DNA of 64,000 bases from positions 1 through 64,000 of IMG/VR virus record IMGVR_UViG_3300035698_016817; one strand, written 5' to 3'. This DNA is from a virus (Duplodnaviria > Heunggongvirae > Uroviricota > Caudoviricetes > Crassvirales). Below are positions 7,497 to 64,000 of this stretch, in pieces. The position numbers were made by a program, and so were the translations under genes. Numbering within the stretch: position 1 is the first letter of the stretch; each line of letters starts with the position of its first letter. The notes below the pieces were generated by a model, which was given only the letters and a program-made list of their open reading frames with translations, was not told where the DNA came from and searched no databases.

Positions 7497-8993
7497 ATGA
7501 TGTATGGTTTAGCTTTTGGAGGAATGATATTACTTGGCGTAATAGGCGTTTTCCTTTTTTACATTTTAATCCTTAGAAGAATTGTCCCTACAAACGAAGT
7601 TCACATCGTTCAAAGAGGCAAGAGTACGACTTCTTACGGAGTTGGTAAAGAGAGTAATGTTTATTACGAATTGCCTGCTTGGTTGCCTATTTGGGGAGTT
7701 GCAGTAAGGAAGTTGCCTGTTTCGAATTTTGACATTGCGCTTAGTGGATATGAAGCTTATGATCAAGACAAAGTTCCTTTTGAAACTGACGTTGTATCTT
7801 TCTTTCACATCTCAGATTCAACCGTTGCTTCTTCTAAAGTTGAGGATTTTGGACAGCTCAAATTACAGCTCAAGACTATCGTTCAAGGCGCTATTAGATC
7901 AATTCTTGCTAACGCTCCTATTGAAACTATTATGGAAGAGAGAGCTACGTTTGGTAAGCAGTTTACTGACGCAGTTAAGGAAGATCTTGCAAATTGGGGG
8001 GTTTCTACAACCAAGAACATTGAGTTGATGGATGTTCGTGACGCTCATGGATCACAAGTAATTGAGCAAATTCAAGCTAAAAGAATGTCTGCTATTGAAT
8101 CTGATTCTAGGAAAGAAGTTGCTAAGAACAATCAAGAAGCTGAACAAGCAGAACTTGAATCTAAAAAAGAAGTCTCTGTGAAAGAAGCAACCGCTCAGAG
8201 AGAAGCAGGCGAAGCTAAAGCTGAGTCTGATCAGGCTATTGGTATAGCTAATGCAACAGCAAATCAAAAAGCTGGTGTAGCTAATCAAGAAGCTGAATCA
8301 GCCATTGCTAAATCGGCCGCAGACACGGAAGAGAATAGAATGGCCGTTATCAGAATTACGCAGATTCGTCAAAAAGAGATTGACAGGGCAGCTGCTATAA
8401 TTCAAGCAGATCTTGAAAGAAAGCAATTAGAGATTAATGCTGATGCAAACAAGTACAATATTGAAACTCAAGCTAAAGCTGACAAATTCAATATTGAAAC
8501 TAGAGCAGAAGCCGCTCTTAAAGAGGCTAATCTTACTGCTGAAGGTATTCGGTCTATTGGTAGATCTGAAGCTTCTGTTGTTGAAGCTAATGGTCTTGCT
8601 GTTGCTGTTTCTACAAGAGAGCAAGGGCTTGCAAGAGTTGCTGCAGAAATTACTTTGTCTCAGAAAATTGGTGAGAACAAGGAGTATCAAGACTATTTGA
8701 TCCGAATAGAAGAAGTGAAGGTGACCCAAATAGTTGGCGTTGCTGAAGCTGAAGCTAAAGGAATAGCGCTTGCTTCTGCAGACCTTAAAGTCTTAGTAAA
8801 CAGTGGAGATGTTCAAACTGGATTAAACGGTTTCCAAGACATTCTTTCTTCAAAAGGAGGAAGTCAAATGAATGGCGTTCTTGAAGCCTTAGAGCAGACT
8901 CCAATGGGAGGAAAGCTTATGAGTTTCTTGAACAGTATTCCTGATGTAGTGAAAACTAAAGCCAAGGAAAAAGTAACAAAAGCGGTTAAATAA
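7497..8993 (+). CDS. SPFH/band-7 (flotillin/YqiK-like) membrane protein
   Basis: N-terminal TM helix (GGMILLGVIGVFLFYILIL) followed by a PHB-like domain, then a roughly 250-aa Ala/Glu/Gln/Lys-rich coiled coil with internal repeats (KYNIETQAKADKFNIETRAE). Confidence 0.65.
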   Translation: MMYGLAFGGMILLGVIGVFLFYILILRRIVPTNEVHIVQRGKSTTSYGVGKESNVYYELPAWLPIWGVAVRKLPVSNFDIALSGYEAYDQDKVPFETDVVSFFHISDSTVASSKVEDFGQLKLQLKTIVQGAIRSILANAPIETIMEERATFGKQFTDAVKEDLANWGVSTTKNIELMDVRDAHGSQVIEQIQAKRMSAIESDSRKEVAKNNQEAEQAELESKKEVSVKEATAQREAGEAKAESDQAIGIANATANQKAGVANQEAESAIAKSAADTEENRMAVIRITQIRQKEIDRAAAIIQADLERKQLEINADANKYNIETQAKADKFNIETRAEAALKEANLTAEGIRSIGRSEASVVEANGLAVAVSTREQGLARVAAEITLSQKIGENKEYQDYLIRIEEVKVTQIVGVAEAEAKGIALASADLKVLVNSGDVQTGLNGFQDILSSKGGSQMNGVLEALEQTPMGGKLMSFLNSIPDVVKTKAKEKVTKAVK

Positions 8994-9052
8994 TCGTATC
9001 TTTAAGAGGCAAAATAACCCCGGTATCTAGAAAGGTATCGGGGTTCATTGTC

Positions 9053-9082
9053 TATTATAAACTAGTAAACACACGACAAATG
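9053..9082 (+). promoter_or_regulatory. conserved start-proximal element TATAAAC...AAACACACGACAAATG (site 1 of 3)
   Basis: Shared with the sites at 9790-9822 and 16129-16172. Motif TATAAA(C/T), then 17-22 nt, then ATG, with the core A(C/T)ACGAC(T/A)A(T/A)ATG. Confidence 0.45.
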
Positions 9083-9796
9083 GCAAACGAAGTATTAGTA
9101 ATTGGCAACTCAGGAAGTGGAAAATCCACAAGCTATGAGCATTTAAATCCTAAAGAGACTTTTATTGTCAACGTAGGTAAGAAACCGCTTCCGTTTAAAG
9201 GATGGAAAAAGAATTACAACAATTTCAGCAAGTCTAACCCCAAAGGGAACTATTTAGAGACAGACGATGCTTCATTGATTTGTAATGCAATGGCTTACGT
9301 TGACAAAAATCGCCCTGAAATCAAGAACTTCCTTGTTGACGATGGACAGTACATCATGGCGAATGAATTCATGCGTAAAGCAAATGAAAAAGGGTATCAG
9401 AAATTCACTGATATTGCTTCTCACATGTGGAAGGTGGTTACTACCGGAAAGGCCATGCGTGAAAACATAAACTTTATTTTGGTAGGTCACGCTGACACAT
9501 CTACTGACGTTGATGGAAAAACAACTACAAGGTTCAAAACGGTTGGAAAGCTGGTTGACAATGTGGTCAACATCGAAGGCATGTTTACCGTAGTTCTTTT
9601 TACAGAAGTGAAAGTAGAACCAAACAAGACTATCAGTCATTCATTCCTGACTCAGACAGACGGCACCAATACTGCCAAAAGTCCTCGTGGCATGTTCCCA
9701 GAACTTAAGATTGAAAACGATCTTAACTATGTGATAAACACAGCGAATGCATATTACAACGATGACACAGTTGTAACAGAAACAGAATTAGTATAA
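9080..9796 (+). CDS. P-loop ATPase, Sak4-like (RecA-core recombination ATPase) candidate
   Basis: Walker A at the extreme N-terminus (VIGNSGSGKST) and Walker B-like FLVDDGQ. About 240 aa and sited near an SSB-like gene, as is typical for Sak4. Confidence 0.5.
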   Translation: MANEVLVIGNSGSGKSTSYEHLNPKETFIVNVGKKPLPFKGWKKNYNNFSKSNPKGNYLETDDASLICNAMAYVDKNRPEIKNFLVDDGQYIMANEFMRKANEKGYQKFTDIASHMWKVVTTGKAMRENINFILVGHADTSTDVDGKTTTRFKTVGKLVDNVVNIEGMFTVVLFTEVKVEPNKTISHSFLTQTDGTNTAKSPRGMFPELKIENDLNYVINTANAYYNDDTVVTETELV

Positions 9797-9822
9797 ATCA
9801 GTATCAAACATACACGACTATG
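9790..9822 (+). promoter_or_regulatory. conserved start-proximal element (site 2 of 3)
   Basis: AGTATAAATCAGTATCAAACATACACGACTATG. Confidence 0.45.
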
Positions 9823-10242
9823 ATTGAAGGACAAGAAGAACTTAACGGTTCAAAAGAAGTAAAAATGAGAGATCTTTCTACCTGCGAGGTAGTAAGCGAA
9901 GTGACAACCCGAATGATTCTTGCGGATCTTGGTGAAGGATTAACCAGAGACGAGATTGCTCTGAAATATGCTTACAAAGATCGTTTATCAGGAGAAGTGA
10001 AGGAATTTGAGAAATGGATGGTTGACATTCTTTTCAAAGATCCTGCGCTTAAAAACAAGCGTCCAGCTGCGAAAAGAAAGGTTCTTCCTTTCTTGTTCAA
10101 GTCTACTTTTCTTGAAGAAGAAGTTCAGTCGGTAGAGGAGAATGTTCTTCCTAATTTTCCAGTAGATGAAGAAGCTTCTGACGATTCAGAAGATGAAGCT
10201 TTTGATAATTCAGAAGACGAACCAATTGTTATCAATTCGTAA
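9820..10242 (+). CDS. hypothetical protein with strongly acidic C-terminal tail
   Basis: C-terminus DEEASDDSEDEAFDNSEDEP. TAATG coupling to the next gene. Confidence 0.45.
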   Translation: MIEGQEELNGSKEVKMRDLSTCEVVSEVTTRMILADLGEGLTRDEIALKYAYKDRLSGEVKEFEKWMVDILFKDPALKNKRPAAKRKVLPFLFKSTFLEEEVQSVEENVLPNFPVDEEASDDSEDEAFDNSEDEPIVINS

Positions 10243-11105
10243 TGGCTATTGAAGCCAATTCATCGGACAAAGCCGTAATCGAAGCTGGAGTGAAACACTT
10301 CACTGGAATTGCGCCTTTTCATGTGCTACTGGTCAACCCTACGTTGGCTCAGTTACACGCGGAAGGAATTATGCTTCAACAGGAGCCTAATTACAAAGAC
10401 CCGTTCAAAGACGGGAAAGCAAACAAGATTACTTTTTGGCTCGGAAACGATGTCGTAAAAGTGCCTATGGAGCTTTTCGTTAATCCTGGAGCCTGGAAGG
10501 CCAAGAAGAACGACAAAGTGAAATGGATGAATAAAATTGGTCAAGACATGTGGTCTGAAGTTCAAGCGAATGGAAAACCTAACCCTGATGACTTCAAAGA
10601 ATGGCACAAAGAGAGAGAGTCTTTCTTTCAGTGCCCAAGAGGTATTGACGACTTGATCAAGTTTATTCAAGCTTGGGCAAATGTTGCAACTGATGGAATA
10701 GTTGAACTGGACACAGTTGAAGCTATTTCTAACGGCAACGTTGCTGAATTGAAAGAGATGCTTGGTGTCTTCAAAAACAACCGAGTACGTGTACTTGTCT
10801 CAATCAGAGACGAGAAGTATCCTACTGTTTACACAAGATACTTTGGTAGAATCAATCCAGAAAGCAACGCTGGCTTCACAAAAGCCATCAACGCAGACTA
10901 TGGAGATCCTAAGGGAGAATATTCTATCGAGTGGAAAGAGTTTAAAGCGGGAGTACACACACCAGATGCTCTGGCTGATGGTGGATCTGCTAGTGGTGAA
11001 GACAACGGTTGGATGAATGCAGACGGTGACGATGAAGATGCAGAAGCAGGAGATGAAATTGCTGGGATCAATCCAGATGACATCGATGATGACCTTCCTT
11101 TCTAG
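10242..11105 (+). CDS. single-stranded DNA-binding protein-like (acidic DDDLPF C-terminal tail)
   Basis: C-terminus DDIDDDLPF mirrors the bacterial SSB partner-recruiting tail DDDIPF, and a Gly/Asp-rich linker precedes it. Confidence 0.5.
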   Translation: MAIEANSSDKAVIEAGVKHFTGIAPFHVLLVNPTLAQLHAEGIMLQQEPNYKDPFKDGKANKITFWLGNDVVKVPMELFVNPGAWKAKKNDKVKWMNKIGQDMWSEVQANGKPNPDDFKEWHKERESFFQCPRGIDDLIKFIQAWANVATDGIVELDTVEAISNGNVAELKEMLGVFKNNRVRVLVSIRDEKYPTVYTRYFGRINPESNAGFTKAINADYGDPKGEYSIEWKEFKAGVHTPDALADGGSASGEDNGWMNADGDDEDAEAGDEIAGINPDDIDDDLPF

Positions 11106-11126
11106 GAGGGGTTAGTTTTACAAACA

Positions 11127-11162
11127 AAGGGGCGTTAATTGATTTTAACGCCCCTTTTTAAT
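11127..11162 (+). terminator. rho-independent terminator
   Basis: AAAGGGGCGTTAA-ttgatt-TTAACGCCCCTTTTT. Confidence 0.75.
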
Positions 11163-11170
11163 TAGAAATC

Positions 11171-11569
11171 ATGACAAAGGATCAAGCAGAAGACATATTT
11201 AAAAACGCTTCCTTACAGAAGCCAGGTGAAGAAATTACTTATTTAGAAAGTTACGCGTTTGGATTAGGTATTAACTCTCGTAGAGAAATGATTATGTCAA
11301 TAGCAGTTGGTAGCGTTGTCGTTTTTAGGGTTATTTGTGAGATTCCAATTAGACTTGTTCTGGACGCTGACAAGGTTGCATTAACAGCTTACAGAGACAA
11401 AATGAGATGGGAGTTTGTAATCTCAATAGTAGCGGCCGGAGTTCGTAAATTAACTTTTACAGAAGAAAAAACTCTGGATTCAATTAAACCGAAAGAAGAT
11501 GATAGAGAGCCGAAACGAATCAGTAAACCTATCGTTATGCCAAATCAGATTATACCTTTCAGATTTTGA
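11171..11569 (+). CDS. hypothetical protein (132 aa)
   Basis: ORF whose 3' end overlaps the next ORF in another frame. Confidence 0.4.
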   Translation: MTKDQAEDIFKNASLQKPGEEITYLESYAFGLGINSRREMIMSIAVGSVVVFRVICEIPIRLVLDADKVALTAYRDKMRWEFVISIVAAGVRKLTFTEEKTLDSIKPKEDDREPKRISKPIVMPNQIIPFRF

Positions 11570-12470
11570 TATTTTCAAAAAGTATTGCGTGCCTTTTTCA
11601 AAAGAAGGAAAGAAGTTTAGTTCTGAATTAAGAGACGATCCTAAGCCTTCAGCGATGATCTCACAAAGAGGTGAAAAGTTGAGGTACATAGATTTTGGAT
11701 ATTCTGAGCATAGATTTGACTCAATTAGCTACGTGCAATACAAGTTTAATCTTGGCTTTATGGATGTTCTTAAGCTCATAGATCATGACTTTGCTCTTGG
11801 TCTGGGGAAAGGAACAGTACAGATGAAGAAAAGGTTTGTTGAAAGCAGGCCAAAACAAGTACCTAAAATTAAGACCGTGATACAGATAAAGGCTAGGCCC
11901 CTGACAAGATTAGATATGGAGTTTTGGGGTCAATACCATATCACCAAAGAGACGCTAAGTATGTATCACGTGGTTCCTATTAGCTACTTCTGGATTAATG
12001 GTCAAAGATTTAAAGCAGACCTGTTGGCTTACGCTTATTGTGAATACGGAAACAGAATTAAGATTTATCAACCTTTAAGCGATAGAAAATGGTTTTCAAA
12101 CGTAAACACACACGACATTCAAGGCCTATACGAGCTGCCAGTGATGGGTTCGAAAGTTATTTTGACCTCTTCCTTAAAAGATGTAATGGCTTTATCGGAA
12201 TCTACTATCCACGCTTGTGCGCTACAGTCAGAGATGATGATGCCTCACCCGAAAGCGATAAAGCTTCTTCAAAGGAAGTTTAAAGAGGTTGTCGTTTTGT
12301 ATGATAACGATTACGATAAGGACAAGAATCCTGGTCAAACAATGGCTCTTAAGATATGCGAAAAGTATAATCTTAGAAACATAGTAATACCTGAAAGATT
12401 TCAATCAAAAGATCCTTCAGATTTAATACTCACTCACGGCCCATACGTGGCCTATAATTTATTCAAATGA
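11499..12470 (+). CDS. DnaG-family primase-like protein (Toprim domain); the real start may be the ATG near 11654
   Basis: Toprim DxD motif VVVLYDNDYDKDKNPGQ and the preceding strand VILTSSLKDVMAL. No zinc-finger seen. N-terminal 70 nt overlaps the previous ORF. Confidence 0.5.
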   Translation: MIESRNESVNLSLCQIRLYLSDFDIFKKYCVPFSKEGKKFSSELRDDPKPSAMISQRGEKLRYIDFGYSEHRFDSISYVQYKFNLGFMDVLKLIDHDFALGLGKGTVQMKKRFVESRPKQVPKIKTVIQIKARPLTRLDMEFWGQYHITKETLSMYHVVPISYFWINGQRFKADLLAYAYCEYGNRIKIYQPLSDRKWFSNVNTHDIQGLYELPVMGSKVILTSSLKDVMALSESTIHACALQSEMMMPHPKAIKLLQRKFKEVVVLYDNDYDKDKNPGQTMALKICEKYNLRNIVIPERFQSKDPSDLILTHGPYVAYNLFK

Positions 12471-12769
12471 AAGACACATTATATTTTCACGGTAAAACCC
12501 AAGAAGGCAGGGCTTTTACGATTGCAGGAGAGTTTAACAACGAAGGCCTTAAGCTTGGAATAGCTCTTTGCAGCAAGAAAGATCAGCTTTACAAGAAGCT
12601 AGGTCGCAAGATTGCTAAAGGAAGAATGGAGTACAACTCAAAAGGTCAAGTAACTATAACTGGTTATTACCCAATTGAGAAAGAACGAATTGCTGTTTTT
12701 AGAGAAGTGATTGTCAAGCATTTTAACGCGAAGAAAGTAAGAGCTATTCGAATTCTCTTTCAATTGTAA
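12467..12769 (+). CDS. hypothetical protein (100 aa)
   Basis: ORF with ATGA coupling to the primase-like gene. Confidence 0.45.
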   Translation: MKDTLYFHGKTQEGRAFTIAGEFNNEGLKLGIALCSKKDQLYKKLGRKIAKGRMEYNSKGQVTITGYYPIEKERIAVFREVIVKHFNAKKVRAIRILFQL

Positions 12770-12965
12770 TGCACACTCAACAAGAAGGCGGTAACTAAAA
12801 GAAGCCACACATCATGATAGAACTAATACAAGAATTTCACTGCTTTAGCGAAGAAATAAAACTCGCATTTATCTGCTTTTCCTCTGCGCTTGGTCTTGGC
12901 CTTATTTACGCCACGATTGAAATTTCGTCAGTGTTTTTCAGGTCTATTGCTAAAATCATACGGGG

Positions 12966-13406
12966 ATGATTGGATTCAAAAAGAAAGGAAAGTCTCATAC
13001 AAAAGCAGTTAAGACTGTAGTTGATGGGATTCAATTTCAATCGAAATTAGAAGTTTACGTTTACCACGCTTTGAAAGCAGCAAAGATTCCTGCTGATTAT
13101 GAGAAGCATTCCTACGTTTTGATCCAGGGTTTTAAATCTGGTATTGAAACGTGGACGAAATGGAAAGGGGTTTACAGAGGTAGATTCAATAAAGTCCAAC
13201 CGATTACCTACAAGCCGGATTTTGTTTGTCCGACAGAACAATGGGTAATAGAAGTTAAAGGAAGAAAATTTCCAAGCTTCATGATGAGATGGAAATTGTT
13301 TCTCAGGCACTTAACAATGCGAGAGATGAACACAACCGTCTATTTAGTTTCTAGTGAAAAAGAAGCTAAAGAAGCAATTATTGACATTCAGAAATATTTT
13401 AAATGA
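12966..13406 (+). CDS. PD-(D/E)xK nuclease, DUF1064-like (resolvase-like small endonuclease)
   Basis: Pattern FQSKLEvyvYhaLK ... YKPDFVCP ... WVIEVKG matches the D ... E-x-K core of DUF1064/Vsr-like phage nucleases. Stop overlaps the GHKL ATPase start. Confidence 0.55.
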   Translation: MIGFKKKGKSHTKAVKTVVDGIQFQSKLEVYVYHALKAAKIPADYEKHSYVLIQGFKSGIETWTKWKGVYRGRFNKVQPITYKPDFVCPTEQWVIEVKGRKFPSFMMRWKLFLRHLTMREMNTTVYLVSSEKEAKEAIIDIQKYFK

Positions 13407-16123
13407 GCATAAAACAAATTGATACTCATGATGGAAAAGTGAAAGGTGTAGCAAAAAGACTTGACTCAGGTTCTGAGAAAATGATTTACGACATCCTTCA
13501 AAAGTCACAATACTCTACTCCTATACCTTCAACGGTAAGGGAGCTAGTGACTAACGCTTGCGATGCGCAACGTGAAAAAGAGATTGCAATTGATATCCTG
13601 AGCGGTAAAGCAAAGGAAGAAGACTATTACATTCGGAGGGATGGAGACGCTTACAGGTCTTCTAATTTCGATAAAGAGTACTATGATTTCAATTGGCTTG
13701 ACAAGACCATAAATCATGTTGAGATTCAATACATTAAGAATCATGGTACTGGATTTTGTGACACGTTTAAAGTCATAGATTTTGGCGTTGGTATAGGGCC
13801 TAAAAGGCTAGAAGGAATGATTTCTTTGGGTTATTCAACCAAGAGGAATACTTCTGAAGGCTTTGGTGCTTTTGGATTGGGAGCTAAAGTTGCTTTGTCA
13901 ACTAACGTTCCTTATTACACGGTTGACACGGTTTATAATGGAAAAAGGTTTTTGATAGAGTGTTCTTCATACACTACAAAGTCTAAAGTTGGAAAGTTTG
14001 ATCACGCGGGAACTGAAAGAAAATTCATCTTAATTGATGATGAAAAATTCTTTTATGAAGACGTCACAGAATTGAATCACACAATTGTAAGCTTTGGAGT
14101 TAAAAGGCATAACAGAACCGCTTTTCAGGAGGCAATTGAGGAACAATTAATTTACATTCCTGGCGTAACCTTGACCAAAATTGACACGGAGAAGAACCCA
14201 CCATCTAAAGAAAGTTCTAAGATTGAAGTTCCTACGCTGTACAATTCGAGGTCATTGGTCTTAAGCCAAGACACTGTATTTAGTAAGCCTCACATCGTTA
14301 TAGTTAAGAACTCTACTGATAAAGCCGGTATCAATTATGGGCCTGTTGACTTCAAGGAATTGGAGATGCAGGAAATGTTCGGTTCTATTGGTTTTAAATG
14401 TCCAATGCGGCAGACTTATAGAGACGATGATGGAGTTGAGCATGTAGTTCAAGAAGGAGTTTCAGTAACTCCGTCTAGGGAAAAAGTAATATGGGATGAT
14501 CCTACAAAAGCGTTTATTCAAACGGTAATTAAGTTAGCCGGAACTGAAGCCACAGCCATAGTTGAGAATGAGTTGTCTACGGAGACAGATTTCCTTGAGT
14601 GGATAAACAAGTGTCGCGAGACCTTCTCAAGAAAAGGTCATGCTTCAGTCCTCGGACGATTATCAAATATTATTGACTTGACGTCATTATCGCCAAAGTT
14701 TGGAACAAGTAAGTTCATTCGATACACTCATTTTTCAAAGATGTTTCCTGGGATTGTATTCGAGAAGATTACTGGGTATCACGGCAAAAAGCCAAAGAGA
14801 ACAGTTGTTGATTCTTGGGGTGAAATAGCTTCGCTATCAAACTTGTACGAGAAGGACGCCAATTACTCTCCAGCTAAAGACATTTATCTTTGTGTAACGA
14901 GAGGCTTAGGTTCCTTTATCACAGTGAAGCCGGTGTATCCTGAGGATGAAGCTGAATTTAACGAGCTTAATCTTTTCACTGAGGAAGAGAAAGAAGCTGC
15001 AGTAGCTAAAACCAAAGAAATTTGGTCTTACATCAAGAAAAGCAAAGCCCTTAAAAGTTACGCTGAAATTGAAGTTCCTAAAGAAGCTAAAGAAGCAATT
15101 GAGAAAGAGATTGAAGACGTTGAAGAAAAGGAAGTTGACAATCTTTCTCCTTCAGAAAGACGTAAATTAGAAAGTCGAGAAGTTGGCTACACTGTACGTT
15201 TAGATCAAAGCAAGGTGCATTCTAGTGTCAAAGCTGTTAGAGATGAGCCTTGGGTTCTGGATAAAGTAGAACCGAAAAGAATCGATTTGCTTTACACGAC
15301 CAAAGAGCTTTACTACGCTACAAGTGATGACAAAGAGCGGCTATTTGATGTAGGCCGAATGATTGAAGGTTTGATGCCCACTTCGCTTGAAGTTTACGGT
15401 CATAATAGAAACTATATGAGAAAAGAGCCATCGATGTTTGGCATCAGTAGTTCGATTCATTATCGAAATTCTAAAGATCAGTTGATTAATGTTAATGCAT
15501 TTAAAGATAAGCCTCAGTTTATCCAGATACGCAGAGATTTAGTCAAGAAGATTCCTGCTGCTTCAGAAATGATGCACATTGATGATTTCACGCTAACTAG
15601 AACACCGGAAGATGCTTACACGACACACCCGATGCTAGTACATGCTTTCACAGCTAGGATGATTGGTGAAGATTGGGCTATCAAATTTGGAAAGTTCATG
15701 GCTCACTTTAAACAAGTTGACAAGCAGATGTATGACAAATACATTAAGCTAGAAAATTACATGAAGCCTTTTCGTGACAGGAAGGGCATCACGCAAGACA
15801 CTAGCCTTACAAAAGAGCTTGACAAGTTGTGGCAATTTCAGCAATTTTGCATGTTCCATGATGAGAAAGAGATCAAGATTAGAAGCATGCAAGACTTTGT
15901 TCTTTGCGATGTGAAAGGAGCTATTGTGGTTGATATGGAATTCCTGAATCTTTACAAAGAATTGATGGATTATGCGGAAGGAGTTTCCGGATTACTTAAT
16001 ATGTTACCAGATGAAGTTTATACTGACAGCTTAGCTGTTGTAGAGATTCAAAGGTTTTTAAAAGCCTCGGACAGAAGTAATTGGAAGTGGGACGACCCTG
16101 TAAATTCCGTACCTTCAGAGTAA
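13403..16123 (+). CDS. GHKL-superfamily (Bergerat-fold) ATPase, 906 aa, Hsp90/MORC-like motif pattern
   Basis: N-box ELVTNACDA, G1 box VIDFGVGIG, G2 box GAFGLGAKVA in the first 160 aa. Long C-terminal extension with an EAKEAIEKEIEDVEEKE coiled segment. Confidence 0.7.
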   Translation: MSIKQIDTHDGKVKGVAKRLDSGSEKMIYDILQKSQYSTPIPSTVRELVTNACDAQREKEIAIDILSGKAKEEDYYIRRDGDAYRSSNFDKEYYDFNWLDKTINHVEIQYIKNHGTGFCDTFKVIDFGVGIGPKRLEGMISLGYSTKRNTSEGFGAFGLGAKVALSTNVPYYTVDTVYNGKRFLIECSSYTTKSKVGKFDHAGTERKFILIDDEKFFYEDVTELNHTIVSFGVKRHNRTAFQEAIEEQLIYIPGVTLTKIDTEKNPPSKESSKIEVPTLYNSRSLVLSQDTVFSKPHIVIVKNSTDKAGINYGPVDFKELEMQEMFGSIGFKCPMRQTYRDDDGVEHVVQEGVSVTPSREKVIWDDPTKAFIQTVIKLAGTEATAIVENELSTETDFLEWINKCRETFSRKGHASVLGRLSNIIDLTSLSPKFGTSKFIRYTHFSKMFPGIVFEKITGYHGKKPKRTVVDSWGEIASLSNLYEKDANYSPAKDIYLCVTRGLGSFITVKPVYPEDEAEFNELNLFTEEEKEAAVAKTKEIWSYIKKSKALKSYAEIEVPKEAKEAIEKEIEDVEEKEVDNLSPSERRKLESREVGYTVRLDQSKVHSSVKAVRDEPWVLDKVEPKRIDLLYTTKELYYATSDDKERLFDVGRMIEGLMPTSLEVYGHNRNYMRKEPSMFGISSSIHYRNSKDQLINVNAFKDKPQFIQIRRDLVKKIPAASEMMHIDDFTLTRTPEDAYTTHPMLVHAFTARMIGEDWAIKFGKFMAHFKQVDKQMYDKYIKLENYMKPFRDRKGITQDTSLTKELDKLWQFQQFCMFHDEKEIKIRSMQDFVLCDVKGAIVVDMEFLNLYKELMDYAEGVSGLLNMLPDEVYTDSLAVVEIQRFLKASDRSNWKWDDPVNSVPSE

Positions 16124-16128
16124 GAAAA

Positions 16129-16172
16129 AATTATAAACAAACAAATTATAAACAAACAAATACACGACTATG
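16129..16172 (+). promoter_or_regulatory. conserved start-proximal element with tandem ATTATAAACAAACAA duplication (site 3 of 3)
   Basis: AATTATAAACAAACAAATTATAAACAAACAAATACACGACTATG. Confidence 0.45.
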
Positions 16173-17345
16173 ATAACGATAAATGTTATTGATAAAATGA
16201 TCGTTGGCAGTATTGGTGAAGAGGGGTTTTCAATTCCTTACACTAAAGAGCGATACGATACCCTTGATGGTTTCGAGGAGGAGTTGGCAAAATGCGCAAC
16301 TCCAGAGGAATACAATAAAGTTTTGGCCAAGGCTAAGCAACTTTGTGCGGAAGTAACCGAGGGCATGATTGAGACAGAATGTGAATTCATTACTGTTGAT
16401 CCTAAGACTCACAAATACTTCTTGAAGTACAACAAGGTTATTTCAGACATTGCGATGCCTCAAGCGCTTGTTGATCGAATTTTGGAATCTGTAGACAAAG
16501 ATCTTCCTTTCCTTCCTCTTGTTAAGATGTGGGTACGTTTTCTTCGTAACCCTAACTTGAGAAAGAAAAACAAGGGAGGGAAGTTTGCAAAGAAATTTTT
16601 CAATTTCATTAACATTACTTACGTCAACCCAGAGTTGAAAGCTAAGTTGATGGAAGAAGGTGGTTTTAACGATGAAGTTGCTTCTAAACGTGCGACTATG
16701 TATCAAATGAAAATCACCAAGGAAGGGTTGCTAAACGGGTACAAAGTATCTTGTGAGGTAATGCACAAGTTTGAAGCTGATTCAAATGGTCAACCTCAAA
16801 GAGTTGATCGTTACTTACGTACGTTTGATGTAAACACTGGGAAGATTACTGGAACAGGTTTGCCTGACACCGTTGAAGAACGTTTGTTTGAGCCTGCTAT
16901 TCAGGGTCAGTCTGGAGATGCGTTTTCTTGTTCTGGTCAGCACGGTTTTCCTGCTGATGGACACTTCATCAAAGTTGGTTGTCTTCACGCTCTTGATAGC
17001 TGGGACAAAGTAAACATTGATGACAGCAAAAGCTGTGTTCCTGGTCTTCACGTTGGAGGCTTGAACTACATTGATGGTATCCGTGGAGAAATCCACAGCG
17101 TATTTATTGACCCAATGCATGTTGGGGCTGTTCCAGATGATTCAATAGGAGCGCTTCGTTGTAAGCAATACTTTGTACATGGGTCTCTTGCTGGTGTAAA
17201 TGGAAGCATTTACCACAGTTCAGATTACGCTTCAACAACTGATGCTGAATGGAAATCAATGCTTTCTGAAGCTATTTTGTTGAAAAACGAAGAGCTTAAA
17301 AAAGCAGAGCAAGGTTTAGACAACTTGAAAGCGCTTACTTCATAA
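16170..17345 (+). CDS. hypothetical protein (391 aa), His/Cys-rich C-terminal half
   Basis: ORF preceded by a tandem ATTATAAACAAACAA repeat and the ACACGACTATG motif, and followed by a terminator. Confidence 0.5.
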   Translation: MITINVIDKMIVGSIGEEGFSIPYTKERYDTLDGFEEELAKCATPEEYNKVLAKAKQLCAEVTEGMIETECEFITVDPKTHKYFLKYNKVISDIAMPQALVDRILESVDKDLPFLPLVKMWVRFLRNPNLRKKNKGGKFAKKFFNFINITYVNPELKAKLMEEGGFNDEVASKRATMYQMKITKEGLLNGYKVSCEVMHKFEADSNGQPQRVDRYLRTFDVNTGKITGTGLPDTVEERLFEPAIQGQSGDAFSCSGQHGFPADGHFIKVGCLHALDSWDKVNIDDSKSCVPGLHVGGLNYIDGIRGEIHSVFIDPMHVGAVPDDSIGALRCKQYFVHGSLAGVNGSIYHSSDYASTTDAEWKSMLSEAILLKNEELKKAEQGLDNLKALTS

Positions 17346-19957: not shown

Positions 19958-20329
19958 ATGTCTACAGAATTAGAAGGAATGGAAGGTGCCTTAGCGGACT
20001 CGTTAAGAAGAGGGTCAAAACAGATCCGTAGCGCAAGAGCGTTGGCAATCGCTGAAAGCACCGAAATGGTGTACAAGCGTAAAATGGAAGATATTGAGAT
20101 GAAGCTTAAGCGCATGCGCAGAGAGCAAGATTCTCAACTAGATCTTAGCCCAGACAACACTACAAGTTTGATCTTGGCCAAAGATTTCGATGAGATAGCT
20201 TTCATCGACAATGATCTTGATTATAGCATCAAGATTCGCGAAGAAGAGATTCGCCTCAAACTTGCACAAGAACGTTATACATTCCTGTTTGGGACTGTAG
20301 AAGATAAATCAATAAAAACTAATTCGTAA
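19958..20329 (+). CDS. hypothetical protein (123 aa), first gene of a four-gene coupled cassette
   Basis: ORF with TAATG overlap to the vWA gene. Charged, predicted helical. Confidence 0.45.
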   Translation: MSTELEGMEGALADSLRRGSKQIRSARALAIAESTEMVYKRKMEDIEMKLKRMRREQDSQLDLSPDNTTSLILAKDFDEIAFIDNDLDYSIKIREEEIRLKLAQERYTFLFGTVEDKSIKTNS

Positions 20330-21237
20330 TGGGAGGAGGATCGTATTCAGTATCAAATTCAATATTAAGCCGTGACGCTGTAAACTCACACACCGGTAAC
20401 ACCTACAGAAATGCTCCAACAAAAGAGCTTTTTAAGGAAACAAAAATTCATCAAAATCTAGATCCTAGAGGGGTCGCATTCAGAGAGTGCCGTGACAACG
20501 CTGATCATCCAAACGCTATTCCTTTGCAGGTTTACTTGGATGTTACAGGAAGCATGGGTCACATTCCTGTTAACTTCATTCGTGATGGATTGCCAACTAT
20601 GATGGGAACTTTGCTTCAAGCTGGAGTTCCTGATACCGCTCTAATGTTTGGAGCAATTGGTGATCACGAGTATGACAGAGCCCCTCTTCAGGTTGGGCAA
20701 TTTGAAGCAGACGATGAGCTTTTAGATGTTCACCTTAAGAACACTTACCTCGAAGGTGGAGGTGGCGGAAACAGAGGAGAGAGCTACGCTTTAGCTTGGG
20801 CCTTTGCTGGAAGACACGTTAAAACTGACGCTTGGGAAAAGAGAAAACAAAAAGGATTTGTCTTCACGATTGGTGACGAAGCGTTTTTGAATCATTACCC
20901 GAAAGAAGCTTTTGACAAAATTCAAGGTGAAGTTTCGGTAGCTCAAGGTGTTTCTTCTGCAGCTCAATTGTTAGAGTTGGCTGAAGAAACAAATCACGTG
21001 TTTCACATTCATGTTGATCATGGAAGACCCGTTGATTCAGCTTGGAGAGAATTGCTTGGAGATAATCTACTTATAGTGGTAGATTATCTGAAGATTCCTG
21101 AGCTTATTGCTGAGAAGATTCTTGAATTTTCTGCAGATTTCGGTAAGAAGATTGTAGAAAGTGATCCTATCATTAAAGCTGAAGGAGCTATCACCGTAGG
21201 TGATTTGCCTTCATCTGAGACAACCATTAAGCTTTAA
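20329..21237 (+). CDS. von Willebrand factor A (vWA) domain protein
   Basis: MIDAS motif YLDVTGSMG, downstream FVFTIGDEAF (hhhhTDG-like), and a Gly-rich EGGGGGNRGE loop. Confidence 0.6.
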   Translation: MGGGSYSVSNSILSRDAVNSHTGNTYRNAPTKELFKETKIHQNLDPRGVAFRECRDNADHPNAIPLQVYLDVTGSMGHIPVNFIRDGLPTMMGTLLQAGVPDTALMFGAIGDHEYDRAPLQVGQFEADDELLDVHLKNTYLEGGGGGNRGESYALAWAFAGRHVKTDAWEKRKQKGFVFTIGDEAFLNHYPKEAFDKIQGEVSVAQGVSSAAQLLELAEETNHVFHIHVDHGRPVDSAWRELLGDNLLIVVDYLKIPELIAEKILEFSADFGKKIVESDPIIKAEGAITVGDLPSSETTIKL

Positions 21238-22350
21238 ATGAGGGCCCAAGTAGTTTTGGGTCTTGGCTATGGAGACGAGGGAAAAGGTCTTACGACTGCT
21301 TTCCTTGTTTCAAAGGCTAAGAACCCTGCAGTTATTCGATTCAATGGTGGGCATCAAGCTGGCCACACAGTTGTCAAAGACGGTATCAGTCACGTTTCTT
21401 CGTCTTATGGTTCAGGAGTTCTTTATGGGGCTCTCACGTACATCATGAACAGTTGCGTGATTTATCCAAGAGCCATAATTAATGAAAACCACGTTTTGAA
21501 GTCTAAGATGAAAGTCATCCCGCCTTTGCACGTGCACCCATTTACTCCAGTAACTACTCCTTTTGAGTTGATGGTAAATCAAAAAATGGAAGAGCTACGC
21601 GGAACAAAAAGACACGGCAGTGTGGGCGTGGGATTTGGAGAGACTCTTCAAAGAGAGGAAAATCATTATCATCTTTTTGCTCAAGACCTTCTATTTCCTT
21701 CAATTCTCAAGTTGAAATTGAAGAACATACAGGAGAATTGCTATCCCAACTTTGATTTTGGTCGGGAGAAAATGGACGAGTTCCTTGAAGAGTGTAGAAA
21801 AACAGCAGAGATCATCAAGATTGACAATGGAAACAACGTTTTCTTTGATTATGAAGAATTGATTTTTGAAGGCGCTCAAGGTGTTCTATTGGATCAAAAA
21901 TTTGGTTTCTTTCCAAACGTGACTAGGTCAAACACTACTTCTCAAAACATAAATCAATTTTTAGCAGCACTTGAAGTGGTGCCAGAGATGTATTACGTAA
22001 CGAGAAGCTATGTAACCAGACACGGAGCTGGCCCAATGCTTAACGAAGACAATGATATTCTTTTGAATAACGCAGAAAAGGAGACCAACAAATCGGACCC
22101 ATTTCAAGGCGATCTTCGTTATGGACAATTAGATGTTGAAGCTATAAATTACGCTTTAATGTGTGACATGCAGTACTCGAACTTTCCAACGATTGACCGA
22201 CATTTAGTCGTAACTTGTATGGACCAGTTTGACTTAAATTTAGCGCCTGTTTTAGACGAAATAGAAATGAACTTTACCAGCATCTTAACCTCTCATGGTC
22301 CGGAAGCCAAACATGTAACAGATTACAAACCTTTAACAATTTCAAAATGA
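21238..22350 (+). CDS. adenylosuccinate synthetase homolog (PurA family; short form, PurZ-like candidate)
   Basis: N-terminal P-loop VVLGLGYGDEGKG (PurA: VVLGTQWGDEGKG). Also RFNGGHQAGHTVV (PurA: RYQGGHNAGHTLV), FEGAQGVLLD ... VTRSNTTS (PurA: FEGAQGTLLD ... VTSSNTTA) and YVTRHGAGP. At 370 aa it lacks about 60 C-terminal residues relative to cellular PurA. Confidence 0.8.
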   Translation: MRAQVVLGLGYGDEGKGLTTAFLVSKAKNPAVIRFNGGHQAGHTVVKDGISHVSSSYGSGVLYGALTYIMNSCVIYPRAIINENHVLKSKMKVIPPLHVHPFTPVTTPFELMVNQKMEELRGTKRHGSVGVGFGETLQREENHYHLFAQDLLFPSILKLKLKNIQENCYPNFDFGREKMDEFLEECRKTAEIIKIDNGNNVFFDYEELIFEGAQGVLLDQKFGFFPNVTRSNTTSQNINQFLAALEVVPEMYYVTRSYVTRHGAGPMLNEDNDILLNNAEKETNKSDPFQGDLRYGQLDVEAINYALMCDMQYSNFPTIDRHLVVTCMDQFDLNLAPVLDEIEMNFTSILTSHGPEAKHVTDYKPLTISK

Positions 22351-22715
22351 ATAAGAAAGAACAAATCGAAGAGCTGTTGATAAATCAAAAGAAAATTTGT
22401 CAGCAAGCAATTGGTGGACAAAGCACATCTTCAAAGAACGCTCGCAAAAGAATCCTACAATCTAAGTCAGTTAACATCCCTGATTATTTGACTAAAGAAA
22501 ATCCTGTGAAGAAAGCAGCTCCAGTTGTTAAGGAAGTTGAAGTAATCAAAGAAGTTAAGGTTGAAGTTGAAGTGATTAAAGAGGTTGAAGTAATTCTCGA
22601 AACAATTGTTGAGAAAGTTGTAATTGAAAAAGTTACTAATCTTCATGTTACTGTTCTTGCAGTAGTAATCTCTGCATTACTTTCGTTTGTTGCGGGTGCA
22701 ACTTTATTCGGATAA
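22347..22715 (+). CDS. C-terminally membrane-anchored protein with tandem EVEVIKEV repeats
   Basis: Tandem roughly 24-nt repeats at 22519-22600 encode VKEVEVIKEVKVEVEVIKEVEVI. C-terminal TM helix LAVVISALLSFVAGATLF. Confidence 0.5.
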   Translation: MNKKEQIEELLINQKKICQQAIGGQSTSSKNARKRILQSKSVNIPDYLTKENPVKKAAPVVKEVEVIKEVKVEVEVIKEVEVILETIVEKVVIEKVTNLHVTVLAVVISALLSFVAGATLFG

Positions 22716-27582: not shown

Positions 27583-30500
27583 TTAACATTCTTCTTTAGA
27601 TACAGTTTTTCTTGAGTCCATTTCCAACCCAGTTGGCGCAGAGTAAGTGTTCATTTGACCCTTAAGTCTTTTATGATTTCCTGCGTCTAATTTGACAACA
27701 TCTTGTCGTCCTTCTAGTGCCGAAGATATGGACTTTCCTCTGTTGACTATTTTAAAGAGTTTTTGTCCGATCACCGCGCCCATTTCTGATTTAACATTTT
27801 GCTTAACAAACAAATGGTGAGCAACGTCTTGGTCGTCTTGACTTCTTATTGGAGGTACGGTGTAGTTATTCCAGATAAAGTTTTCTGCAAACTTTAAAGA
27901 AAATACTTCGTCTGCTCCTTGAGTGCTAGAGAAAGGAGTTAGGCCTTCCATGTTCCCTTTGTAGTTAGGTAAGATTGAGTTTGTCAATCTAGCGTAAGCT
28001 TCTCCTGGTATTCTATCCAAGAAAGAAAATGGAGAATTTATTGTCCCAGACTGCAATATGGCTGCCTGAAGGACCTTGTAAGCAATATTCGTGTTGTTTA
28101 TTGCGTCATACTCAATTAATGCGTTGTAAGCATCTACAAGTATAGCGTCATCCCACATATTCATTGCTTTGAATTGAGGCTCAACATAATCGTTTTGACC
28201 GGTGTTTTTAGGGTCTTCTTCTATGTAAGGAATTAAGAAGTCTAAAAGCTCATTTTTGTTTAGTGGATGAGACTCATCGTTTTGAATTTTAGATACAAGC
28301 TTTGCAAACGTTTTTGAACCATACATTGAAGCGTGGGCCGTGTCTTTTAAAGCCACTCCATCATCGTTATTAATGTTTTGCAGAATAGTTGTAATGTAGT
28401 ACTGCTCTAGTCTCTCTAAGACTCTAATTTTCTCATCCATAGACATTTTAAAGTTCTTAGGGTGAGTCAGAGAGAAAACAAATTCAGAGTATACTTGACG
28501 GAAATTATCGACAAGTCTTTGATCATTTAAGAACTTATTGTAATCCTGTTTGAAAGATTCTTCTTGATCTTTCTCTGTGAAAAACATGTTCTTAAATATG
28601 TCATCGGCCATGTTGGTAAAGTCTTTCATTGCAGACATGTATGACACTCCTTTTTCAAGAATTTTTTCAACGCCAGGGAAGACATTTCTTCCAATAACGT
28701 TTTCGTATTGAGAACGAACTAGTCTAGCGTGCGCTCTACTTTTAATCAATTTAGTGTCAACTGATTGAGCCGTAATTACAGACGTTATGTCTTCTCCAAC
28801 TTGAATGTAAGCTAGAAAGCTGTCAAGTATTTGAGACTGAAGCGTTCTTTGAGTGTCATCCAAATCTTCAATTGGAGTCTCAATCATCGCAGTCATAATT
28901 TCATCAGTAAGATATTGCTCTTCAGCACTTATTTTGCTTTCTGAAGAAGGAGCAAAAGTTTTAAGCGTTTCATTGTATACATCAACGTCTGTTTGATTTT
29001 GTTCTCCGTTTTTGCCTTTGATAGACGTCCTGGCTACAGAAGTTCTAGAATCTCTTTTTTTTATAAACTCGCGGATAATTGGTTGATTAAAGAACAGCGC
29101 AGTTGTTTCAAGTGGAACTCCATTTCTCAATAAAGAGAAGTATGCTGGAGCCGTTCCTGGAGTAATGTTTAGAATGTGCAAGTAAGGGTTTGCCACAACA
29201 TCTACCGCTAAGTTCAAGAACTCAGATAGTATTTCAGTGATCTTAACTCCGTTGACGTTCTCGATCTCTCCCATGGTAGAAAAAGGATTTGCTATTTCTC
29301 CCATTTCGTTAAATTCAACATGAAATTTATTCATCTCTGCTTCTACCCCCTGAGGATTAAACCATAGAATAGGACGGATTTTATTTCCATCAGGAAGTTC
29401 GTAAACAGTTTCCATGTTTAGGCTAGTTCCAGCAAGTTGTGATTGAACGTGATGCTTAGCCGTAACAGCTGCAATACCAAGCACTTTATCCGCTTGAGTG
29501 TAAGCTCTACCAACTTCAGCCATGTAGGGAATTGTTGTTTCCTTGTGCATGTTTACAACGTTTCCTAACTGAACAATATCAAACCCAGACTTTTCAAACA
29601 TCAGCAATAGACTGTCCTTCATGTTTTCCACGTTAGGAATAGCTACTGGATTCAGGTGCTCTTCTCTCCTTCCTTTATCAGAAAGAAGCTTAATTGAAGT
29701 CTCGATTACTCCGTTCTCTAGGGCTTTGATGCTTTGAACATCAAAGACTCCTTTGTCAGGGTTTTCGTTTCTCCACGTTTCGAAAGGCTTAGGGTAAAGC
29801 ATCTCTTTTTCTTCAGTCATAAACTCAGGAACAGCCTTTCTAATCTCGTCCATCTGAGCTATTAACTCGTCTATTTCTTCTTGATCAGCGTTTTCCGGTA
29901 CTTCTTCAGGAGTATACTCTTCGTTTGCTATACCTGGAAAACTGTTTAAAAACAGCACTGCCATTCTATCAGCTTCAATTGGCATGTCTTGAAGCCTATT
30001 CAATTTGGCTCTCAATCCTTTGAAATCAATGTAGTGATGCATGAACTTTCTTACAGTTCTGTCAACATTTGACTTGTACCAGTCCTCGATATTAGTGTAA
30101 AACTGCTCTTTTTGAGGAGCACCGTTCTTCATGTAATAGTTCAAGAACATTGTCGTCATCTTATCAATGTCGAAGTCACTACCAGACTTGAACACAACGC
30201 CAGGCGGGATTACAATTTTGGTCCCTGCATGCTTAGGTAAGAAAGCTTTGATCCTTAGGATTTCAATTGAGTGAATACCATCTGTTGGAATACGAATTCC
30301 AATAGCGTCAAGCAATTCACTAGAGTTAGGAACTGGAACGCCGTTGATAGTGATTTCTCCATCTTTAATTTGCACGTCAGTACCCGGAGCAATAAGCTCT
30401 TTGTACATGTGTGGCATCATGGTTTCAACTACGTAGTTCCCGTCTTCTTCGTACACTTTTAGTTCTTCACTGTAAAGTATACCGTTTTCATTTTCGCTTA

Positions 30501-50615: not shown

Positions 50616-51111
50616 TTTTTGAACTCATTAAGGGTTTGTAATCCAAGTACGCAAGATCGTCTTTATTTATAATAGCTGTTAAGCGCTCTACCGGACTATT
50701 TCCTTTTGCGCCTCTTGCTGCATCAAATCTATAAACGAACTTGTTTGATACTTTGCACTGCTCTTTAACCCACCTAAATCTTAAGTAGTATTCAGAAGTG
50801 TAGTATACAAAGTACTTATGCCCCTCCCCTGTTTCGTGATCGTATAGCTTTTTTCCTTCAGCTAACAATTCAGCTTTAAGTTCTAGCGTTGTCTTCCAAT
50901 TTACTTTTAGATTTGCTGGATCTCTTTTATTTCTTACAACACTCAAAGTAGACATGTTGTGTTTCATGTTAAACACTTTCCCTTCTAACAAGAGTTGAGT
51001 CACGTTTTTGTTAAACTTGCAAATTAGCTCGACAAAAACATTGTAAGTGATTACGTGCTCACCGTTCTCTTTACAGAACAGCTGATACATTTCTTTCCTA
51101 CCTCTTGGCAT
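50602..51111 (-). CDS. virion structural protein (169 aa)
   Basis: ORF that is coupled to its neighbours. Confidence 0.45.
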   Translation of the reverse strand: MPRGRKEMYQLFCKENGEHVITYNVFVELICKFNKNVTQLLLEGKVFNMKHNMSTLSVVRNKRDPANLKVNWKTTLELKAELLAEGKKLYDHETGEGHKYFVYYTSEYYLRFRWVKEQCKVSNKFVYRFDAARGAKGNSPVERLTAIINKDDLAYLDYKPLMSSKNGNL

Positions 51112-63827: not shown

Positions 63828-64000
63828 CTGTTTACAAATTTAATATGGACAGTTCGTTCTGCCACTTCCTAACGGTTTTTTGGGATGTCCGTTAACTACA
63901 TCACATTTTATTTTATTTTTTTTGCCTGTTTGGCTTCCAATTTCGCATGTTTTTAGAGTAGCCACCTAGTTGATATGATGGATTTTCAGTGGTTTCTATT

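Follow-up and report, generated by a model that had tools for sequence, protein, structure and literature searches.

Promoters of the T7 group are conserved over about 23 bp, in a register from -17 to +6, and are read by a single-subunit RNA polymerase (RNAP). The early promoters of N4, which serve an injected giant RNAP, are few in number and consist of DNA hairpins with 5-7-bp stems and 3-nt loops. In T4, RegA represses rIIB and other early mRNAs at A/U-rich, poorly conserved sites that overlap the AUG, and early promoter/stem-loop cassettes are found at the borders of exchangeable gene cassettes. The primary-sigma promoter of Bacteroidetes reportedly has TTTG at -33 and TAnnTTTG at -7. The element described here lies in a 64,000-nt stretch of DNA (hereafter the window), i.e., positions 1 to 64,000 of the IMG/VR record IMGVR_UViG_3300035698_016817, which is part of the genome of an uncultured crAss-like phage. 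It stands in three copies (S1, S2 and S3) directly before the genes of a Sak4-like ATPase, of an acidic 140-aa protein (orf140) and of a rIIB-like protein.

In phage phi14:2, all of the rightward replication module is transcribed early, with only a moderate effect of rifampicin, in line with use of the virion RNAP gp66, while the leftward genes depend on the host RNAP (10.1101/2020.03.07.982082). The phage of the window is like phi14:2 in that its rightward replication module is followed by a leftward block whose first genes encode an RNAP-associated protein and a giant protein with DFDID, in that the early module has long non-coding stretches on its left, and in that middle/late genes have host-type promoters. 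It is unlike phi14:2 in that a class of boxes and a three-copy element are evident, and in that its RNAP candidate is a single open reading frame (ORF) of 4191 aa, known from sequence. A literature search returned no consensus for crAss early promoters.

A repeated element before three unrelated genes

The composite TATAAA(C/T), 16-21 nt, ATG, with ACACGAC placed 1-2 nt before the ATG, occurs exactly 3 times in the 88 kb of phage sequence covered (the genome less some 19 kb). Further samples yielded contigs of this phage, 99.75-100% identical, which add 11 kb on the left (L262) and 6.4 kb on the right (L258) of the window, and thus the whole early module (L262:1100 to window:22715) is open to examination. 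The three sites precede the Sak4-like gene (9080), orf140 (9820) and the rIIB-like gene (16170), all in gene orientation.

In S1 (9053-9082, + strand), the box TTATAAAC (9055-9062) is followed by the spacer tagtaaac, ACACGAC (9071-9077), AA and the ATG at 9080. S2 (9788-9822, +) is made of the box GTATAAAT (9791-9798), the spacer cagtatcaaacat, ACACGAC (9812-9818), T and the ATG at 9820; its spacer exceeds those of S1 and S3 by 5 nt, and the stop codon TAA of the Sak4 gene (9794-9796) is inside its TATAAA. In S3 (16128-16172, +), the box TTATAAAC (16146-16153), the spacer aaacaaat, ACACGAC (16162-16168) and T lead to the ATG at 16170. An identical 15-mer, ATACACGACTATGAT, is present in S2 and S3. 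Moreover, a perfect 15-nt tandem duplication (unit ATTATAAACAAACAA at 16130-16144 and 16145-16159) supplies S3 with a second TTATAAAC box at 16131-16138; it is reported by Tandem Repeats Finder at 16128-16161, with a period of 15, 2.3 copies and a 100% match.

A first-pass annotation, made from the letters alone, had described a near-identical element directly before the genes at 9080, 9820 and 16170, and all three sites were found as described. The tandem duplication that it placed at 16129-16158 is real, but these coordinates are off by one base. The pattern that it gave for the core, ACACGAC(T/A)A(T/A)ATG, matches 0/3 sites, the actual sequences being ACACGAC-T-ATG (S2 and S3) and ACACGAC-AA-ATG (S1).

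The pattern TATAAA-N(3-22)-CACGAC has 3 matches vs. 0.14 expected, and 0/100 shuffles give 3. When S1 and S3 are aligned without gaps and anchored on the ATG, 20/26 positions are identical, the maximum over 300 shuffles being 19; a repeat finder returns the same pair as 24 nt at 83%. A sequence-only profile model run over the 88 kb retrieves exactly S1 (28 bits, E 2e-7), S2 (24.3 bits, E 3e-6) and S3 (22.7 bits, E 1e-5), the next match having an E of 0.24. It should be noted that a lone 7-mer common to three upstream regions at similar offsets is seen in more than half of the shuffles, thus ACACGAC alone proves nothing. The three downstream genes being mutually unrelated, gene duplication is not the cause of the repeats. 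The element is real, non-random, phage-specific and present in three copies.

A fourth, weaker copy (TATAAATATTAACAACGACTCT, L262:9754) is not beside an ATG and falls below noise in the model search; it was not counted. Chance probably explains two further resemblances, ACGAC(1-3 nt)ATG where gene 2374 starts and AAACACGCAAAAAATG at 1301.

Other resemblances between regions that precede genes were observed. The best-matching pre-ATG pair of the window is 22318-22346 (+) vs. 50616-50645 (-), with 22/26 identities (GATTACAAACCTTTAACAATTTCAAA-ATG and GATTACAAACCCTTAATGAGTTCAAAAA-ATG). Both segments are within the 3' ends of genes, i.e., the PurZ-like gene and the gene of a 169-aa late protein, which both encode a C-terminal DYKPL..SK; the codons of this peptide are just before the overlapping starts of a 122-aa gene (22347) and of the gene of tail ring protein 1. 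The 12-mer GACGAACCAATT is found at 10215-10226 (+) and 54332-54343 (-), upstream of the SSB gene (10242) by 26 nt and of a late gene of 458 aa (54312) by 28 nt; gene 44537 also has ACCAATTT, at an offset of 23, in common with these two upstream regions. A perfect 21-nt direct repeat, AAAGAAGCTAAAGAAGCAATT, is located at 13359-13379 and 15080-15100 (+), in the 3' end of the DUF1064 gene and in rIIA.

Gene boundaries and the two classes of boxes

The reading that we favour, although tentatively, is that the element unites an early-class promoter with a short 5' leader that is conserved, as a cassette present three times in the replication module. The box (TTATAAAC or TATAAAT) would be the recognition or melting element, and transcription would start at an estimated 6-8 nt past the box. 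The mRNA leaders would then be only about 10-17 nt long and made almost wholly of the conserved AA(C/U)ACACGAC(U/AA) up to the AUG; such an unstructured, A/C-rich leader would suit an initiation independent of a Shine-Dalgarno sequence. With a start at that distance, one cassette would explain both halves of the element, the box and the core. In favour of this reading, the three copies end 1-2 nt before the starts of three non-homologous genes, the box is duplicated in tandem at S3, and there is no RNA structure common to the sites.

The surroundings of S1 are in line with a promoter. Between the SPFH/Band-7 gene and S1, a terminator-like hairpin with a 13-bp stem (9016-9045, +) is the top terminator-like site of the module (-22.1 kcal/mol, z -4.4; 0/200 shuffles fold equally well). 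It qualifies as an intrinsic terminator, 23 nt past the SPFH stop codon, with a weak T tract (TTCATTGTCTAT). S1 begins 10 nt beyond this hairpin, thus a restart of transcription is needed there. The SPFH/Band-7 gene (7500-8993, +; PF01145, 6e-17) separates DnaB from Sak4 and, together with the hairpin (7500-9045), is missing in 10/10 relatives examined, i.e., it is an insertion; in L084, the relative read at the DnaB junction, the next gene begins 3 nt past DnaB.

The gene flanked by S1 and S2 encodes a Sak4-like ATPase annealing single-stranded DNA (9080-9796, +; phrog_2872, 6e-63). Its allele is 54-62% identical to that of a phage group for which identity drops to about 28-32% in the helicase, DnaB and primase; relative to the clade with DnaB, primase and rIIB at 43-62%, it is at most 28% identical or undetectable. 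Judged by these identities, the Sak4 allele is foreign, i.e., mosaic, and S1 and S2 flank a horizontally exchanged cassette. Since the copies are localized at module boundaries (next to the SPFH gene and its terminator, on the flanks of Sak4 and between rIIA and rIIB), the element probably was spread by recombination or helped it.

This location also bears on another explanation, in which the copies are neutral or near-neutral recombination scars: a short intergenic segment would have been copied to gene boundaries during mosaic exchange and would be tolerated, not selected. Such an origin would account for S1 and S2 exactly flanking the foreign allele, and agrees with the insertion of the SPFH gene and its terminator, with the perfect and hence recent duplication at S3, with an element unique to this phage and with the existence of other odd pre-start similarities (e.g., 22347 vs. 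50615, 22/26 identities). We nevertheless find it unlikely: the three copies agree in orientation and in their 1-2-nt register to the starts of unrelated genes, S3 is at no obvious mosaic boundary, and the box half is one of a class that is over-represented and strand-specific. S1-S3 read alike in every contig of the phage, across several samples, and give no evidence of decay, but contigs that are nearly identical throughout have little power to show decay or its lack.

S3 fills the gap between the rIIA-like gene (13403-16123, +; Pfam and PHROG family matches), whose stop codon is 46 nt before the rIIB ATG, and the rIIB-like gene (16170-17345, +; phrog_609 and phrog_2886; 774 homologues, the best being 62% identical). 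At the same junction, diverged relatives have a near-invariant TAATTT(C)GTAT(C/A)TTTA (CGTATCTTTA) or TAAATTTG box plus leader, while the flanking coding sequence varies. Since the box is kept while the coding flanks diverge, the rIIA/rIIB junction is a conserved regulatory site; the phage of the window carries a different sequence there. Within 10 kb in 14 relatives, rIIB is the only gene with GTAT(C/A)TTTA directly before its start, the few other copies being away from starts. In the marine relatives (L082-L131; e.g., L092 5724-5748), a near-invariant box plus leader of 25-30 nt (TAATTTCGTATCTTTATAGTAAATAATTAAAC-ATG and variants) precedes rIIB, and this points to a rIIB-specific regulatory element in these phages.

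The box belongs to a wider class. TATAAA is the most enriched hexamer of early intergenic DNA (11 in 4.7 kb vs. 7 in 27.8 kb of coding DNA), and TATAAA(C/T) is found 17 times vs. 7.0 expected. On the early sense strand TTATAAAC occurs 7 times vs. 0.96 expected, a number given by 0/300 dinucleotide shuffles; elsewhere there is 1 antisense copy and 1 copy in the late module. Besides the box of S1 and the two of S3, TTATAAAC is found at L262:2101 and L262:8954 (9-10 nt before small membrane ORFs), at L262:2311 (19 nt before a gene) and at L262:7948 (76 nt before a gene). As its distance to the ATG is variable, a promoter element fits this box better than a translation signal.

The late genes have a different box. 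TAAATTTGTA occurs 3 times in late orientation and 0 times on the early sense strand, and it matches the Bacteroidetes -7 consensus TAnnTTTG (the host being presumed to be of Bacteroidetes type). The first base of the box at 63833-63842 (-) is 15 nt before the ATG of a 368-aa gene (63827) upstream of the capsid gene, the end of this box and its TAAATTTG core being 5 and 7 nt, respectively, before the ATG. Counted in the same way from the first base, the box at 44571-44580 (-) is 43 nt before the ATG of a 760-aa gene (44537), and that at L258 1028-1037 (+) is 12 nt before the portal ATG (L258:1040). Two of the three boxes end 2-5 nt (TAAATTTG cores 4-7 nt) before the ATG; as they nearly abut it, leaderless or nearly leaderless late mRNAs are implied.

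The split of the two classes by module is as expected if two polymerases are used, and since the early box misfits the host -7 consensus found upstream of late genes, a separate enzyme probably serves the early class. If phi14:2 is a guide, the injected virion RNAP with DFDID would be that enzyme. The candidate is the giant 4191-aa protein (27583-40158, -), with DFDID at residue 3328 and an architecture that was compared with that of phi14:2 g065/g066; it is a possible crAss-type virion RNAP and a possible reader of the early elements. The more precise proposal, that TTATAAAC(N8)ACACGAC and the wider TTATAAAC class are the promoter of this crAss-type enzyme, with an mRNA start about 10 nt before the AUG, is drawn from the same analogy and seems doubtful to us.

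The boxes may also be read on the other strand. Their reverse complement (GTTTATAAT at S1 and S3, ATTTATACT at S2) is a near-perfect sigma-70-type -10 element, TATAAT being perfect at S1 and at both boxes of S3, and antisense promoters would then be directed into the 3' ends of the upstream genes. This is highly improbable. The presumed host type uses TAnnTTTG, not TATAAT, a scan with the sigma-70 consensus gives no site at S1-S3 on either strand, and the ACACGAC core and its fixed position to the ATG would be left unexplained. Moreover, on the early intergenic sense strand GTTTATAA is absent (0) while TTATAAAC is found 6 times, thus the orientation of the boxes follows that of the genes.

Promoter with a leader or translation signal

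As for the initiation of translation, a Shine-Dalgarno core (even a 4-mer, from -18 to -4) is found in 1/50 genes vs. a background of 13%, and positions -12 and -11 are A in 33/50 genes; initiation in this phage is of the Bacteroidetes style. The first-pass annotation had argued from a lack of space for a ribosome-binding site beside the element. This argument has no weight, since 49/50 genes are without any Shine-Dalgarno core and lack of room is thus the norm. With Shine-Dalgarno cores avoided and -12/-11 rich in A, other features of the leader must guide initiation. No stable RNA structure common to S1-S3 was found (z from -0.2 to -0.7 for the folds of S2 and S3, with RNA parameters), and Rfam gave only sub-threshold matches in window 1-23000, on terminator hairpins. 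In the otherwise Shine-Dalgarno-less relatives L090 (9850-10937), L091 and L123, 2-3 adjacent small genes have a perfect AAGGAGGTGACAA-ATG, i.e., a canonical Shine-Dalgarno sequence; they may be a recently acquired or duplicated set from a source that uses such sequences.

The element could thus act after transcription, as a translational operator or an initiation enhancer in which ACACGAC beside the AUG co-regulates Sak4, orf140 and rIIB, its recogniser being an RNA-binding protein of phage or host or, in a host without Shine-Dalgarno sequences, the ribosome itself. The core always stands 1-2 nt from the ATG while the TATAAA box is at variable distances from it, the regions are unstructured, the avoidance of Shine-Dalgarno cores and the A-rich -12/-11 positions agree with such a signal, and S2 is within a transcription unit, with no terminator before it. 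In phi14:2, a leader-like motif, TAAAACTA, is near several early ATGs (8 sense vs. 1 antisense). On the other hand, no RNA-binding repressor family is present among the early proteins scanned (Pfam, PHROG), many small ORFs being without annotation; the core precedes only 3 of about 45 early genes and is not kept before the orthologous genes of relatives; and the TTATAAAC box class, the tandem duplication at S3 and the position of S1 past a terminator are left unexplained. A purely post-transcriptional role is, to our mind, improbable.

Comparison with T4 bears on both ideas. The element resembles RegA sites and the T4 cassettes in being a short sequence that abuts the AUG of several early mRNAs, including that of rIIB, and in being repeated at the borders of exchangeable genes; it differs in that its core is exact, and no RegA-like protein is present among the early proteins scanned.

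The T7-group promoters are likewise multi-copy, phage-specific, strongly conserved and directly before genes, and they have the ACGACT string. However, only 6 bases are in common with the T7 consensus, and the element has three copies and a variable internal spacing; about 13 nt are conserved across the three copies, with a 5-nt indel, instead of a fixed 23-bp register. No single-subunit (T7-like) RNAP family was found among the early and large late proteins scanned, which include part of those encoded on L262. The resemblance to ACGACT, already suspected to be coincidental, is most simply seen as such. As in N4, the early promoter proposed here would be present in few copies and serve an injected giant RNAP; unlike in N4, S2 and S3 have no hairpin (folds with RNA parameters), and the 13-bp stem-loop ahead of S1 resembles a terminator.

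With the Bacteroidetes primary-sigma promoters, the element has in common a short A/T-rich box, a few to about 25 nt before starts without a Shine-Dalgarno sequence, and relatives have TAAATTTG or TATCTTTA exactly at the position of S3. It is distinct in that TTATAAAC and TATAAAT are without the TTTG half, TAnnTTTG near starts being found only before late genes. The -33 TTTG, expected 19-21 nt upstream of the -7 box, is not present at any of S1-S3. The sigma-70 consensus has no site at S1-S3 (44 in the module vs. 46.6 expected), TATAAA having A for the conserved last T.

Several results weigh against an early promoter with a leader. There are only three copies. The distance from box to core varies (16, 16 and 21 nt) while that from core to ATG is fixed (1-2 nt), and this is more what a signal tied to translation would show than a bipartite promoter. 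At S2 and at L262:7948, TAA in the box is the stop codon of the preceding gene, which weakens both as boxes. S2 is 23 nt past the Sak4 stop codon and 740 nt after S1, with no terminator between it and Sak4, and thus looks redundant as a promoter; conversely, three further terminator-like sites in the module have no copy of the element after them. For phi14:2, Drobysheva et al. (bioRxiv 10.1101/2020.03.07.982082) detected no motif shared by the regions that precede its early transcripts. In 57 related loci (about 1 Mb) the profile model has 0 matches to the full element, and TATAAA, considered as a clade-wide oriented box, was rejected because it is found 69 times forward vs. 65 times reverse in the intergenic DNA of relatives. 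Viral, metagenome and genome collections contain nothing beyond chance level either: a loose pattern gave only single chance-level matches in IMG/VR; a pattern with a gap of 9-10 nt, which misses the 8-nt spacing of S1 and S3, gave 41 single, chance-level matches and no multi-copy locus in JGI metagenomes; the 8-nt-gap pattern gave 2 chance-level matches in the viral scan, in one unrelated Bacteroidetes-type phage lineage, before a capsid-like gene, and 8 scattered bacterial ones, also at chance level, in GTDB genomes.

Absence from related genomes was what the first-pass annotation had said would refute its proposal. Formally the motif is absent, but this is a weak test, as the closest relatives have only about 60% amino-acid identity. 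No close relative was found: the phage database has no nucleotide or rIIB protein match, and identity to rIIB reaches no more than 62% in a search of 5.8 billion proteins. A phage-specific promoter producing very short leaders, as first proposed, is still the best reading in view of the enrichment of the box on the sense strand, the hairpin, the box at the rIIB junction of relatives, the host boxes restricted to late genes and the DFDID protein; the fixed register of core and ATG at a variable distance to the box, the redundancy of S2 and the three terminator-like sites with no element speak instead for a translation-linked signal.

The phage and the meaning of the element

The rightward module (window 1-22715) encodes DNA ligase, SNF2 helicase, DnaB, the SPFH/Band-7 protein, the Sak4-like ATPase, SSB (...DDDLPF), primase, a DUF1064 nuclease, the rIIA-like and rIIB-like proteins, a FEN-type exonuclease and an adenylosuccinate synthetase (PurZ-like). 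The leftward module (22768-64000) begins with a 1604-aa protein followed by the 4191-aa protein, and contains crAss tail-ring and crAss capsid proteins. The acidic orf140 (9820-10242, +), read from its translation, was the only sequence returned by an indexed search; a comparison of loci gave homologues 48-57% identical in L081, L084, L085 and L131. The next gene (10242-11105, +) encodes a 287-aa protein with no Pfam or PHROG match, whose C-terminus ...DDIDDDLPF is the acidic tail that is a hallmark of SSBs from bacteria and phages; this protein is probably the SSB of the phage.

The adenylosuccinate-synthetase homologue (21238-22350, +) matches PF00709 (6e-45) and, as top PHROG, the PurZ-type phrog_1211 (8e-61). 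To judge from this homology, the phage might make 2-aminoadenine (Z) DNA, which would be unusual for a crAss-like phage. No Pfam family was matched by the neighbours of this gene (19958-21237 and 22347-22715).

Non-coding features are present at the left of the early module. A self-cleaving Pistol ribozyme (L262 2519-2586, +; 66 bits vs. a gathering score of 34.5, E 1.5e-10), some 8.5 kb to the left of position 1 of the window, is found in early intergenic DNA, 20 nt before a gene, and contains one TATAAAT "box". An 800-nt non-coding stretch (L262 6560-7160, +) has a tRNA-Ile with the unusual anticodon AAT (ARAGORN; Rfam tRNA, 50 bits), fragments that are tRNA-like and a weak Y-RNA-like match. 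Other long early non-coding regions (L262 1458-2117 and 8632-10000) recall the abundant early non-coding RNAs of phi14:2. In phi14:2 itself (L266, NC_021806, 1-40937), TAAAACTA is strand-specific in early intergenic regions (8 sense vs. 1 antisense) and is often 8-12 nt before the ATG, e.g., ACAATTAAAACTAAAGAATAA-ATG, despite the published lack of a common early motif.

The kind of element is ordinary and its sequence is new. Its practical weight is modest, i.e., three copies in one uncultured phage. Should it be a leader or translation signal only, it would be a small data point on Shine-Dalgarno-independent initiation in Bacteroidetes phages. Its placement around the exchanged Sak4 gene and after an inserted gene with its terminator illustrates how promoter-leader cassettes may travel with mosaic exchange or enable it. 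No promoter sequence is known for the virion RNAP of crAss-like phages. The clean split within one genome, i.e., the non-host TTATAAAC in the early module and TAAATTTGTA before late genes, provides a template that can be synthesised for in vitro transcription by a crAss-type RNAP. If the virion RNAP is indeed the reader, the element would be the first sequence-defined promoter for the DFDID enzyme family.

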